NCBI GenBank assembly: GCA_964549615.1
Contig: CAZJVP010000058.1
Coordinates: forward strand, 1-22,162
Length of the DNA: 22,162 nucleotides
Direction of reading: 5' to 3'
DNA from: an uncultured Thermococci archaeon
Lineage (GTDB): Archaea; CAYQAE01; CAYVLA01
The notes beneath the pieces were generated by a model. The model worked only from the letters and a program-made list of their open reading frames with translations. It was not told where the DNA came from and did not search any database. This document shows, in pieces, positions 17,988 to 22,160 of the stretch; positions within the stretch are counted from its first letter, which is position 1, and every line of letters begins with the position of its first letter. A program made the position numbers and the translations under genes.

Positions 17988-18085
17988 TGGGCCCGTCGGG
18001 ACTTGAACCCAAGAACTTCGCCTGTTTGAAACGGGGAACCCCGCTCACGTCAAGGCGACGTCATAACCAACTAGACCACGGGCCC
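17988..18085 (-). tRNA. tRNA-Val(GAC) with 24-nt intron at position 37/38 (18024-18047); CCA not encoded
   Basis: GGGCCCG/CGGGCCC acceptor stem, D-loop AGTTGGTT, TCGCC/GGCGA anticodon stem, GAC at 18051-18049, TTCAAGT T-loop; mature length 74 nt. BHB motif: TTGA/TCAA helix with CG|T and AC|A bulges. Confidence 0.96.
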
Positions 18086-19055: not shown

Positions 19056-21483
19056 AAGCGGGCAGGACGACGTAGGCGGCCAGGTAAACCACCGCGCCGA
19101 TGACGAGAACGTTGGAAAAACCAACCAGGCTCGCAAGCACGATTGTGCCTGCCGAACCCACGACCGACGAGCATCCGTTCGCACAGTAGGCCAGAGGGAC
19201 CGCCGCGGGCTGCCTCTTGCCAAGCATCCTCAGACCCGTCGGAAAGGGAATGCCCATGGCAAATGCAGGGGGCGCCATGAGCCCGACCGCGATGCCGAAT
19301 CTGGCCCACACGTGCCAGCCAAGAAGGGTCCGAAAGACGGACCCCAAGCAGAATGCCTCGGCCAGCACAAGGAGCGACACAGCCGTAACCGCCGCGAAGA
19401 TCGCCCTCGGGGCCGGCTGCCACCTCCTGCTCCAAACGCTACCCAGGCCCGAGAACACGAGCATTGAGAAAAGGACAGCCGACATCGCATAGGCGGGCTG
19501 GCCTAGGAAGAGGATGAACTTCTGAAGGTACGTGACCTCAACCAGCATGTAGCCTGCTCCCAGAAGCATGAAGTAGGCGACCCACCTCCAGATCCCCGTC
19601 GGCCTTTCCCTCTTCCTAGACGCTACGGCCACTGGGAGGCCCACGAGCAGCACGGATGCGATGCACGCCTGCATGAGTACCGCCACAACAAGGAGCCCTC
19701 CCTCCAGGAACGGGTTCCAAAGCTTCCCCAGAGTCCGCCGCAGCTCAAGCAACCTAGTCCATTTCATGAAATCGAAGAAGAAAGGCCTCTCATCGGTCGG
19801 CGGCGTGAGGTCGAAGAGGTATGCGCGATAGAACTTGTCTCTCTCCTGCGGGTCGACTATCCTTCGGAACGCCTCGTAGTACTCCTCGGCCTGGAACTTG
19901 TTGAACCTGTTCGTCTCGCCCGCCGAGAGTCCAGGCAGATACACCAGGTCGTAACGCCTTTCCTCGCAGATCTCCCTTATGCGGGCAAGCTCCTCGTCCG
20001 CATACGGGGTCCTTTTCACCATTGTGGTCACGGTAAGATAGGTCCGAAACGACGCAAGATGAACCGACGGGTCGCTGACCCCTTCCGCCTCCAAGGCCGC
20101 AACCATGATCGAGGCGATCCTCGGCGACTGCCGCGGAGGAGGGGACAACCACCTCGTCACCACAAGCACCCCGTCGGGGGAGAGGTGGCGCAGCAGCTCC
20201 CGAAAGCTCTCCACGGTGAACAGATAGCTCTCCGAGAGGCTGTAGAGCCCTACCGAGGCGGTGACCGGATCCTGCTTGAGCGATATCTCCACAAGGTCGA
20301 AAACCTCCTTCGACGACGCAAGATAGCACCTCGGATCCACTACGTGGACCTGGACCTCGCTACGGGAGTACAGGAAGCCCGAGAATGCAGCAAACTTCGT
20401 CCTGACCGCTTTCACTATGCTCGGATTCCTCTCCAGCGCGACGATCTCGGAGGCGCCGTTCCAAAGGGCAGACAGGACATCCAGTCCACCTCCGGAGTCA
20501 ACGACGAGAACCTTGCCTCTCGGGGCGATCGCGTACGGAACCCTCGACGGGAGAGTCTCGAGGAAGCCAAGATTCGAGAGGTTGCCATCGAAACTCGTCA
20601 CGGGCTCGAGATTGTCCCCGTCCACCGTCAAGCCGATCTGTTCCGGCACCCGCTCCGCTGAGTCAAAGGCCATCCCGGGCGCATAATGTATCAGCCTACT
20701 GCTTACGGCATCGACGCGCGAGACCGAGTTCCAATCGCTCCATACTAGGCTGGCGTCGGGGTACCTCAGGGCACAACTCAGAGCCTTGTACTCAGAGATG
20801 GTCGGGTTGAATCCGGGTTGACCTAGCATTAGCAGGCCCAAGCCCAGGGCGCCTGCGAACGCCAGACGGCTTTGCGCAATGAATCCCTCCGATCGTGAGA
20901 AGAGCCCGCAGGCCAACCCGGAGAATGCGGCCGATCCGAGGATTGCCAAATGTGGCCCTCCGAAGGGCATCACGGCTAGGGCGAACACACAACCCACGCC
21001 CGCCCCAACGAGGTCCGCGAAGTACACGAGATTAGCCCGGGATGGATTCCGTGTGACGACGCATGCGAGGCAGATCCCGGTGAAGAAGAAGGGCAGTCCA
21101 AGGGCAAGGTACTGCAGTATGATCACCCAAGCGTGGAGGGGCCTGGCATTTGCCCTGATCGGATCGAACCTCAAGGCGACGGCGAAGAAGACCGAGAAGA
21201 TGGTGGACAGGCAGGCACCGGCGCAGGCTGCCGGCACGACCTTGCGGCTCCTAACAAGGGAGGGAGTGAGGTAAAGTACCGATCCGCCGACCGCGTAGCC
21301 GAAGAGGGCAATGCTCACGACCATGAACGCGAAGTGGTACCACTGAACCAGCGAAAGTATCCTGGTCAGCGCGATCTCAGATGAGAGTGCCCCTGCGGAA
21401 AGGACAGCTATTGCAACGAGTTCCTTGCGAAAGCTTCGACCGCCCGAGCTTCCTCGAATGCCCCTGTACTGGCCCACGGCCAT
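19039..21483 (-). CDS. Polytopic membrane protein with central spermidine-synthase-like SAM-binding domain (type B)
   Basis: EIALTRILS..QWYHFAFMVVSIALFG TM block; WNSVSRVD, VLVVDSGGGLDV, ESYLFTVE and PTDERPFF in the soluble domain; C-terminal TM block (YFMLLGAGYMLVE...MGIPFPTG...NGCSSVVG). Confidence 0.88.
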   Translation of the reverse strand: MAVGQYRGIRGSSGGRSFRKELVAIAVLSAGALSSEIALTRILSLVQWYHFAFMVVSIALFGYAVGGSVLYLTPSLVRSRKVVPAACAGACLSTIFSVFFAVALRFDPIRANARPLHAWVIILQYLALGLPFFFTGICLACVVTRNPSRANLVYFADLVGAGVGCVFALAVMPFGGPHLAILGSAAFSGLACGLFSRSEGFIAQSRLAFAGALGLGLLMLGQPGFNPTISEYKALSCALRYPDASLVWSDWNSVSRVDAVSSRLIHYAPGMAFDSAERVPEQIGLTVDGDNLEPVTSFDGNLSNLGFLETLPSRVPYAIAPRGKVLVVDSGGGLDVLSALWNGASEIVALERNPSIVKAVRTKFAAFSGFLYSRSEVQVHVVDPRCYLASSKEVFDLVEISLKQDPVTASVGLYSLSESYLFTVESFRELLRHLSPDGVLVVTRWLSPPPRQSPRIASIMVAALEAEGVSDPSVHLASFRTYLTVTTMVKRTPYADEELARIREICEERRYDLVYLPGLSAGETNRFNKFQAEEYYEAFRRIVDPQERDKFYRAYLFDLTPPTDERPFFFDFMKWTRLLELRRTLGKLWNPFLEGGLLVVAVLMQACIASVLLVGLPVAVASRKRERPTGIWRWVAYFMLLGAGYMLVEVTYLQKFILFLGQPAYAMSAVLFSMLVFSGLGSVWSRRWQPAPRAIFAAVTAVSLLVLAEAFCLGSVFRTLLGWHVWARFGIAVGLMAPPAFAMGIPFPTGLRMLGKRQPAAVPLAYCANGCSSVVGSAGTIVLASLVGFSNVLVIGAVVYLAAYVVLPASRSPP

Positions 21484-21521
21484 ACGACTGGGGCGACGAA
21501 CTTATTGGTTTCGGGTTATAG

Positions 21522-21613
21522 GGGCCACCTGAACGGAATAGAAAGCGCACAATTCGGGGAAATAGGGGGTTCTTTTGGGGGTTTAGGGGGTTGAGCTTCC
21601 ACTCAGGTGACCC
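21522..21613 (-). ncRNA. Putative structured small RNA or 5' leader: 17-bp terminal stem closing a C-rich loop
   Basis: GGGUCACCUGAGUGGAA (21613-21597) pairs fully with UUCCGUUCAGGUGGCCC (21538-21522), using three G-U pairs that work only on the minus strand. It begins at the expected distance from a strong TATA box. Confidence 0.6.
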
Positions 21614-21636
21614 TCCGAAAAGAGGCCACGGCCTCC

Positions 21637-21650
21637 TTATAAAGTTTTTG
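21637..21650 (-). promoter_or_regulatory. BRE-TATA promoter
   Basis: Minus strand CAAAAAC-TTTATAA; the first T (21643) lies 30 nt upstream of the GGG at 21613. Confidence 0.7.
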
Positions 21651-21875
21651 GATTCGCCGGACAATCTTGACATATTTTGCACGCGCCGCGCAAGGAGGCG
21701 GCTCAACCCACTTCCACTCAACTTGACGGATCCAGCCTCATCCTGCCGAATGTGGGAACCGATGCTAGTCTATTGCGAAGCCCGCGACATCGCCCGTAGG
21801 ACTTAGAGCAAACCACGACTGCTGCTTATTCAGGTTGGGCAAGATCCAGCCCCGCCGCCTTGTATGCACCGCAGG

Positions 21876-22160
21876 TTACCCTTCGCCGAAGGCTGTCCTG
21901 GACAAGGCTTCCGTCTTCTCGCCGAACGTGTCCAGGCACTGCACCCTCAGGCCCAGTTCGATCGCCCTCGGCAGTATCTGGAATCCATCCAGCACCGCGA
22001 TCAGCCCATGGACCGCGCGGCCCTCATCATGAAAGGGCGGATAGAACGTGGCTAAGACATCGAGAGCATCAACAACGTCGTCCAGGATGCTTCCCAGCCT
22101 CTCCAACGTCTCGGCCCAACTCTTGATATCCTCCTGCTTTCTCAGCGCCCTCCACGCCGA
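21876..22160 (-). CDS. 3' part of a hypothetical helical protein entering from beyond the window
   Basis: Frame is open from the window end: SAWRALRKQEDIKSWAETLERLGSILDDVVDALDVL...; no family recognised. Confidence 0.45.
   Translation of the reverse strand, partial: SAWRALRKQEDIKSWAETLERLGSILDDVVDALDVLATFYPPFHDEGRAVHGLIAVLDGFQILPRAIELGLRVQCLDTFGEKTEALSRTAFGEG

Follow-up and report, generated by a model that had tools for sequence, protein, structure and literature searches.

Does the minus strand of a short intergenic stretch in contig CAZJVP010000058.1 of an uncultured Thermococci archaeon (assembly GCA_964549615.1; the whole 22,162-nucleotide [nt] piece analyzed here is referred to as the window) encode an RNA, and if so, how might that RNA act? 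An earlier note on the window had proposed that an unannotated, promoter-driven RNA of ~92 nt, with a long terminal stem enclosing four C-tracts, lies on this strand at 21613..21522. Judging by the conservation of the RNA and the invariance of its promoter, the locus does appear to behave in this way, and it very probably represents a real, previously undescribed small noncoding RNA gene of one uncultured archaeal family. The RNA probably acts in trans rather than as the leader of its neighbor. That it does so by base-pairing of the C-tracts with G-rich RNA is proposed tentatively and with weak commitment. The explanation taken as a whole, a single-copy, independent gene for a ~92-nt RNA that pairs in trans, is given a probability of about 0.4.

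A BLAST search with 161 nt of the locus against the window's own genome (3.21 Mb in 104 contigs, 99.46% complete) returned only the self match; the other nine hits were 14 to 22 nt long, with E values of at least 0.13. Among 40 relatives, clear matches were confined to the family's three remaining genomes (E = 2e-34 to 6e-25; 80 to 85% identity). A covariance model detected exactly one copy in each of the four family genomes, which belong to a Genome Taxonomy Database (GTDB) phylum of five species, and gave no match in the fifth species, which is AT rich and belongs to the other family. At the syntenic place in that other family (genome G004), a cluster of LSM, L37e, and tRNA genes is kept, and the AT-rich DNA beyond it holds no comparable element. 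A miniature inverted-repeat transposable element or other repeat element was rejected on the basis of the single copy per genome found by both BLAST and the covariance model, so that a check for many genomic copies, proposed in the earlier note, came out in favor of its claim.

An exact 20-mer from the interior of the RNA, used in one exact-word scan of a metagenome collection, retrieved six contigs, and the same 20-mer run over all GTDB species genomes recovered only the three known relatives. All 10 loci (four genomes and six metagenome contigs) scored 95 to 117 bits with the covariance model, and the 8 distinct sequences among them made up the comparative alignment. When the model (R2) was run on the window's genome and 150 archaeal genomes, nothing credible was found in the 147 genomes outside the family; the best match there (L052; E = 0.026 per genome) resembles coding sequence. 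Viral contigs contained no match to the 20-mer, and an 18-mer with one N gave four matches, none of which fitted the model at an E value below 0.3. The pattern AACCCC..AACCCC..AACCCC occurred in 17 of 401 genomes; outside the family the strings look like tandem or coding repeats, a judgment made from the matched string itself except for L074, which was inspected and has neither stem nor promoter. Contigs of four further public DNA sequencing runs, covering only about 21498-21686, showed 0 or 1 difference in the RNA and 4 or 5 in the spacer just upstream.

In a long alignment, conservation switched on at the first G of the RNA and off at its last C, and it is these edges that delimit the predicted transcript (88 to 97 nt in homologs). 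Identity to the window was 83 to 99% in the RNA, 56 to 78% in the spacer, and about 46 to 60% in more distant flanks, and for the protein encoded downstream, the same genomes share an identity of ~51%. The homologs differ by indels of 1, 2, 4, and 5 nt in the interior, which indicates that it is noncoding.

On the minus strand, a TATA box (TTTATAAG, 21643-21636) preceded by a CAAAAAC resembling a B recognition element (BRE) (21650-21644) makes up an archaeal core promoter (21636..21650). The first G of the RNA sits 30 nt past the first T of the TATA box, at the spacing from TATA box to GGG that the earlier note had given, and 27 nt past the beginning of its ATAAG; the spacer between TATA box and RNA measures ~22-23 nt. 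Because archaeal TATA boxes center near -26/-27, the start would fall at 21613 ± 2, where the helix described below begins. The promoter core AAAACTTTATAAG is identical in all eight alignment rows, and the adjoining spacer varies to the extent given above. Farther upstream, a box (GTGCAAAATATGT, 21682-21670) may bind a transcription factor or serve as a distal part of the promoter. Its GYRCAAAAY core could be aligned in all eight rows, and its position is nearly fixed, with the first G 39 nt away from the TATA box and the interval free of indels in six of the eight rows (exceptions, L011 with +3 and L044 with -1). The box was also present in loose contig ends of two other sequencing runs. No second instance of the box-plus-TATA combination was found in the window's own genome, and the idea of a regulon under this box was dropped for that reason. 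A site in the same genome (contig C51, ~13964, plus strand), GGTGCAAAATATTTATAT, consists of the same words as the upstream box fused to a TATA box; past it, within the 5' region of a gene, come a 9-bp hairpin and a C5 tract. This site raises the possibility that GTGCAAAAT is a BRE-like promoter word.

Other stable-RNA genes of the genome offered a comparison for both ends. In tRNA genes with a recognizable A/T-rich box (six counted by eye), the box lies 31 to 36 nt ahead of the mature 5' end, which is consistent with transcription beginning a few bases ahead of the processed tRNA end. The RNase P RNA gene has GATAAGT 32 nt upstream, the same spacing as before the 814-amino-acid (aa) gene downstream of the locus, which suggests from motif and spacing that TATA boxes of this organism commonly take the variant form ATAAG. 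An oligo-T terminator 3' of the helix was seen neither in the window sequence nor in the long alignment, in agreement with the earlier note, and the tRNA genes of the genome are mostly without obvious oligo-T trailers as well, so that the missing terminator says little. The predicted transcript would thus run from G21613 to C21522 or just past it, and its 3' end may be made by processing. Nor does the RNA have the intrinsic terminator hairpin expected of a C-rich-motif sRNA of the RsaE kind: its 3' end is engaged by its 5' end, without an oligo-U stretch behind it.

The two ends of the RNA form a long helix. The 5' arm GGGUCACCUGAGUGGAA (21613-21597) and the 3' arm UUCCGUUCAGGUGGCCC (21538-21522) make up the 17-bp terminal helix P1, identified by folding, covariation, and RNAalifold, which recovered the identical helix. 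Its three non-Watson-Crick pairs, U4-G, G12-U, and U13-G, are all G-U on the minus strand, just as had been read from the letters. The minus-strand RNA had a minimum free energy of -25.6 kcal/mol (z = -3.0; 1 of 200 shuffles folded as well), and the plus strand gave a z of -0.66, with 54 of 200 shuffles as good. In the 15-bp core of P1, 99.2% of the 120 cells from the eight distinct sequences were paired, versus 33 to 51% in slid controls. Twenty of these cells (summed by hand) are G-U and would be A-C on the plus strand, so that they suit the minus strand only; together with the fold scores of the two strands, they bear out the view that selection has acted on an RNA rather than on a DNA palindrome. 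Double-sided changes were found in three pairs (AU/GC; CG/UG/AU; GC/GU/AU), and five more pairs change one-sidedly. The P1 pairing score was matched by 3 of 500 shuffles, in a test that related sequences, and these are close kin, can pass without having any structure. P1 runs uninterrupted by bulges in all eight sequences, and its pairing probabilities were 0.88 to 1.00 at 37 and 65°C. Positions 21605-21610 of the 5' arm hold UCACCU, which is identical to the core of the 16S rRNA 3' tail GGAUCACCUCCU (contig C46, ~700), and P1 thus resembles a duplex of Shine-Dalgarno (SD) and anti-SD sequences; in genome G002 an A is replaced by G with a compensating change. The mimicry is probably a coincidence, and the change in G002 argues for selection on pairing.

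P1 encloses 58 nt that contain just six G's and four C-tracts (three AACCCCC units and one UUUCCCC), at 21590-21586, 21581-21577, 21569-21565, and 21559-21556, so the description of a nearly G-free interior with four C-tracts stands. Module 1 (CUCAACCCCCUAAACCCCC, 21577..21595) carries tracts 1 and 2, is predicted to be unpaired, and is nearly invariant apart from the length of its C-tracts, which varies from 3 to 5 C's. A purine linker, AAAAGAA (21570..21576; 6 to 12 nt in homologs), leads to module 2 (CCCCCUAUUUCCCCGAAUUGUG, 21548..21569), which carries tracts 3 and 4. Module 2 and the preceding AAAGAA constitute a 28-nt block that is invariant in all four species genomes; in the six metagenome contigs, 20 nt of the block are invariant by construction, since these contigs were retrieved with that 20-mer. 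The C-tract bases had mean pairing probabilities of 0.05 to 0.19 at both temperatures in all eight sequences, so that the tracts are predicted to be exposed, as the earlier note held. Conservation of both the stem and the C-tracts in relatives, with covariation in the stem, had been named there as a check, and both were found.

Additional structure within the interior is less clear. A pyrimidine-rich, mostly U tract (CUUUCUAUU, 21537..21545), which abuts and enters the 3' arm, is present in every homolog with a variable sequence and could be either the 3' strand of a second, weak helix (P2) or a protein site of the Sm-like type; the purine linker could supply the 5' strand of P2. For this candidate helix, 90.9% of 55 cells were paired, versus 64 to 82% in slid controls. 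One AU/GC double change was seen, in two probably sister sequences, and 22 of 500 shuffles scored as high. In the window's own clade, the predicted duplex has no more than 4 bp (-1.5 kcal/mol), compared with 6 to 9 bp in the other five sequences, and P2 is regarded as tentative. If it is real, the open 58-nt loop would become a 5' bulge with tracts 1 and 2 and an apical loop with tracts 3 and 4. A different inner closing helix, GCUCAA/UUGUGC, suggested in the earlier note, did not hold up: 77% of its cells were paired, a U-U mismatch occurs in all eight distinct sequences, the only variable pair is broken in three of them, and 175 of 500 shuffles scored as high.

Comparison with known classes of RNA and of elements gave no assignment. 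With the 4227 models of Rfam 15 at the gathering threshold, the sole match in the whole window was a tRNA at 17988-18085; when the filters were made permissive and E values of up to 10 were allowed, 21400-21750 yielded one meaningless match (E = 4.5); and the eight related loci yielded tRNAs only. The earlier exclusion of tRNA, C/D, H/ACA, signal recognition particle (SRP), and RNase P RNAs was thus upheld. Reduced forms of RNase P or SRP RNA were rejected in view of the standard RNase P RNA (174.5 bits) and SRP RNA (186.1 bits) encoded elsewhere in the same genome. C/D box small RNAs (sRNAs) carry box C (RUGAUGA) and box D (CUGA) near their ends; the 92 nt contain no UGAUGA, and the single CUGA lies within the 5' arm. 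A bulge-helix-bulge substrate or circular RNA, for which two 3-nt bulges parted by a 4-bp helix are characteristic, does not agree with the bulge-free P1. For a Rho-utilization (rut)-like site, PF07497 had no matches in the window's genome and matches in 9 of 14 control genomes. A Y RNA or Ro ribonucleoprotein was rejected because TROVE (PF05731) had no matches in the genome, with the controls Deinococcus and Bacteroides positive; the Y-RNA-like reading of the earlier note therefore fails in its strict sense, the stem also being without a bulge. Its suggestion of a template-like RNA found no support: no G-rich (telomere-like) repeat arrays and no shared contig ends were seen in the genome, and the Pfam and NCBIfam scans of neighboring genes, which included no targeted search for reverse transcriptase, gave no match to that enzyme.

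In the proposed mechanism, the strong BRE/TATA promoter and its upstream box would direct a start at the first G of the helix or no more than one or two bases away from it. P1 would join the 5' end to the 3' end, most likely shielding both and helping to define the 3' end, and would present a G-poor, single-stranded interior with four C-tracts in two sequence-invariant modules. The exposed C-tracts could then pair in trans with G-rich stretches of other RNAs, for example, with G-run variants of SD sites. The host uses SD sites, its 16S rRNA ending in the sequence given above, and GGAGG peaks at -15 to -11 in 182 of 2292 crude gene starts. GGGGG stands at the same place in 47 of the 2292 starts, versus a background of about 14; because it peaks at the SD position, G-run sites for a C5 tract do exist in this genome.

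Several observations weigh against this explanation. GGGGGTT, the exact complement of the repeated unit, stands at the SD position in just three genes. In a scan of the interior against the 2292 start regions, which used crude gene calls and ignored accessibility, duplex energies were no better than those of 12 shuffled interiors, and the longest perfect complement in the genome was a 14-mer, which is at chance level. The 28-nt invariant single-stranded block, linker included, is more than is usually needed for a multitarget seed, and its invariance fits a protein or one fixed partner at least equally well. Each of the three compensatory pairs in P1 is contributed by one sequence, among eight distinct sequences of close relatives, and the transcript, its ends, and its abundance are predictions from DNA sequence alone. 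Finally, there is no terminator past the helix, and the next promoter starts 10 nt downstream, so that read-through and an effect in cis retain some small probability. With G-U pairs allowed, complementarity to the initial 6 kb of contig C46 (16S rRNA 3' end, 23S rRNA, and downstream sequence) extended over 11 to 12 bp, which is about chance. Recurring GGAAATAGGG sites shared no context apart from one two-copy repeat. This intergenic-looking repeat of ~90 nt (contigs C39, ~385, minus strand, and C87, ~25504, plus strand), whose copies share GGAAATAGGGGA and flanks, is unrelated to the RNA except for the shared 12-mer.

The strongest rival, only slightly less likely than pairing in trans, holds that the C-tracts, perhaps with the U-tract, form a multivalent platform for protein, with the helix serving only for stability: a poly(C) binder of the KH type or an Sm-like protein would be titrated or delivered, as with CsrB/RsmZ or Y RNA. 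This is possible and somewhat doubtful. Poly(C)-binding proteins recognize C-rich tetrads through their KH domains, and the RNA offers four similar units parted by short A/U spacers. Its modules are invariant over 28 nt, non-C bases included, in four species whose neighboring protein is only ~51% identical, and the scans of complements, rRNA, and start regions gave no signal of an RNA target. In six of the eight distinct loci, LSM-domain, L37e, and PUA-domain genes lie 0.5 to 0.8 kb away. However, this linkage is broken in L045 and in the window's genome, whose LSM gene is found on a different contig; no partner protein was identified, and the genome has no match to TROVE/Ro or to the Rho RNA-binding domain. 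The U-tract varies in sequence and is possibly paired with the purine linker, and archaeal Sm proteins favor oligo-U over C. An RNA forming the core of a new archaeal ribonucleoprotein, in which the four C-tracts capture or titrate a C-specific protein of the KH type or Sm-like type, is put forward with reservations. We know of no archaeal sponge or chaperone RNA that would be a counterpart of CsrB, Y RNA, or 7SK.

A role in cis for the downstream membrane gene, either as a read-through leader or as a unit occluding the gene promoter 10 nt downstream by transcriptional interference, is distinctly unlikely. The gene, listed at 814 aa, encodes multipass membrane regions that surround a core with a very weak resemblance to spermidine synthase (Pfam, E = 0.015; NCBIfam, E = 1e-4; neither match comes near its cutoff). 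A gene for this membrane protein of ~814 aa lies downstream of the RNA and is codirectional with it in all 10 loci, and the end of the RNA is only 12 to 21 nt away from the CCAATAAG-type motif of the gene in 8 of these loci, which represent 6 of the 8 distinct sequences. These arrangements, like the helix without an oligo-T terminator, favor an effect in cis, as does the phylum member that lacks the RNA and also gave no match to the membrane protein. However, that co-absence is based on one genome, and the tRNA genes are without obvious oligo-T trailers too. Other genes intervene in two of the eight distinct lineages: in G001, 1.67 kb with two opposite-strand genes, one of them with HTH/AbiEi-like domains, lies between the RNA and the membrane gene, and in L045 the interval is 710 nt with a glyoxalase-family gene. 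In both cases the promoter-like element GAAACCAATAAGT (window, 21512-21500, minus strand) has moved with the gene and adjoins it, and the RNA itself is unchanged. A 5' leader or riboswitch of the membrane gene was therefore rejected, and the earlier suggestion of a regulatory 5' leader is mostly refuted, since the gene keeps its own promoter-like element across insertions of 0.7 to 1.7 kb.

The gene itself also appears to have no leader. In seven loci counted by eye, an in-frame GTG or ATG lies 27 to 30 nt past the ATAAG of the GAAACCAATAAGT-type element, and the 814-aa gene is probably leaderless with its own promoter, the likely start in the window being the GTG at 21477 (21477-21475, minus strand) and not the ATG at 21483; the boundary region 21475..21512 would then lie outside the RNA. 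A further point against a role in cis is that the RNA is far better conserved than the gene at the nucleotide and amino acid levels, respectively.

It is very unlikely that the element has no function and is a conserved intergenic stretch of close relatives that folds by chance. The sample does consist of one family and eight distinct sequences, and several metagenome copies are near-identical to the window; the identity of the element nevertheless exceeds that of the flanks in the same genomes, and the sharp edges of conservation, the compensatory changes in the helix, and the invariant promoter at a fixed distance all stand against this view. Least probable of all, to the point of near dismissal, is an element acting as DNA, with a plus-strand G-quadruplex or minus-strand i-motif in an inverted repeat serving replication, recombination, or transcription: the plus strand does contain a canonical quadruplex motif, G4-N5-G5-N7-G5-N3-G5, which is rare (four runs of at least four G's or C's with gaps of 1 to 8 nt occur five times on both strands of the 3.2-Mb genome, the RNA locus included), four tracts of at least 3 G's or C's with short loops are kept in all eight homologs, and genes have been inserted or replaced directly alongside in three lineages, but a DNA cruciform would have A-C mismatches at the roughly one-sixth of helix cells that are G-U on the minus strand, the loop bases are invariant and the tract lengths variable, which is the reverse of what a quadruplex needs, an invariant minus-strand promoter lies at the right distance, and the G-rich strand is the template strand, on which a quadruplex would be expected to hinder transcription.

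The neighborhood of the RNA has been rearranged on either side, and its survival of these changes marks it as a unit of its own. Upstream, in six of the eight distinct loci, lie a divergent PUA-domain gene, an LSM-domain gene, rpL37e, and an intron-bearing tRNA gene (L009, 278-1470; the same place in L010, L011, L041, L042, and L044), rpL37e having a GAGGTGA SD site. The tRNA of this cluster, read by eye, is a tRNA-Ala (GGC) with G3:U70 and apparently two inserts; Rfam called it in two of the six loci and ARAGORN in none. In the window's lineage and in L045, the PUA/LSM/L37e/tRNA cluster is not upstream of the RNA. The window's lineage has instead a gene for a protein of at least 673 aa (window, 21876-22160, minus strand; L046, 7894-9914, minus strand), which gave no Pfam or NCBIfam match. 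The inserted genes of G001 (L009, 1667-3060) encode 205 aa with HTH and AbiEi_2 domains and 259 aa without a Pfam match, and from these domains they look like a toxin-antitoxin pair of the AbiE type; stable-RNA genes often serve as insertion hot spots. Elsewhere in the window, at 17988-18085 on the minus strand, lies a 98-nt intron-bearing tRNA gene (Rfam, 53 bits), for which ARAGORN gave tRNA-His (GTG) and, with intron search, tRNA-Leu (CAA), presumably from the same gene.

Among described systems, the closest parallel for pairing in trans is offered by the Firmicute sRNAs of the RsaE/RoxS type; RsaE corresponds to Rfam RF01820, and IsrR/FsrA are of the same kind. The window RNA has several conserved unpaired C-rich motifs, namely its four tracts, and resembles these sRNAs in being small, having its own promoter, being highly conserved, and carrying unpaired C-rich motifs in its most conserved part. 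It differs in belonging to another domain of life, in having no sequence or covariance-model match to them, in carrying C5 tracts in place of UCCC, and in its architecture, which is one end-to-end helix with one large loop instead of hairpins with C-rich apical loops and a Rho-independent terminator; in addition, targets have been found there and none here. In RsaE, unpaired UCCC motifs bind SD sites and block initiation (PMC2790875). The review text that describes sRNA41 and sRNA154 of Methanosarcina mazei states that their loops mask ribosome-binding sites, including sites inside polycistronic mRNAs (PMC5867862). These two RNAs are like the window RNA in being archaeal and intergenic and in acting in trans with single-stranded loops, which is known for them and proposed here; their targets are experimentally known, and the likeness is drawn from that review text only, with no homology detected and no direct comparison of sequences.

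Other parallels bear on binding of protein. CsrB/RsmZ sponges likewise repeat a short motif in unpaired RNA, and the invariance of the window RNA would suit protein recognition; their motif is GGA rather than a C-run, they have up to about 20 motif copies versus 4 here, and no partner protein was identified for the window RNA. Y RNAs are ~100 nt long, with a long terminal stem pairing the 5' and 3' ends and a pyrimidine-rich internal loop. The window RNA shares length, end-paired stem, and pyrimidine-rich loop with them and with bacterial Y-like RNAs, and differs in its genome having no TROVE gene, its stem no conserved bulge, and its sequence no Rfam Y RNA match. In a full-text search on noncoding RNA of Hadarchaeota, the match listed was unrelated, judging by its title and abstract opening, and in one on archaeal C-rich sRNAs, the matches were mainly bacterial and no title concerned an archaeal C-rich sRNA, supplementary files lying outside the scope of both searches. 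The window RNA is rated as a new RNA family in which familiar parts (a promoter, an end-to-end helix, and C-rich unpaired motifs) occur in an arrangement of no described class.

The function is known for only a few archaeal small RNAs, and hardly any of these come from uncultured lineages. For this RNA, now known from four species of one uncultured family and from metagenome contigs, the comparative evidence is unusually clean: the promoter is invariant, the edges of conservation are sharp, the end-to-end helix covaries, and a single-stranded block of 28 nt does not vary. Because the family is uncultured and the evidence comes from DNA, tests will need metatranscriptomes or in vitro work; the covariance model is ready for annotating genomes of the family. 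Should the C-tracts prove to pair with G-rich ribosome-binding sites, the use of C-rich seeds by Firmicute sRNAs would reach archaea on a different scaffold; if they bind protein, the RNA would be, to our knowledge, the first sponge-type RNA in archaea.

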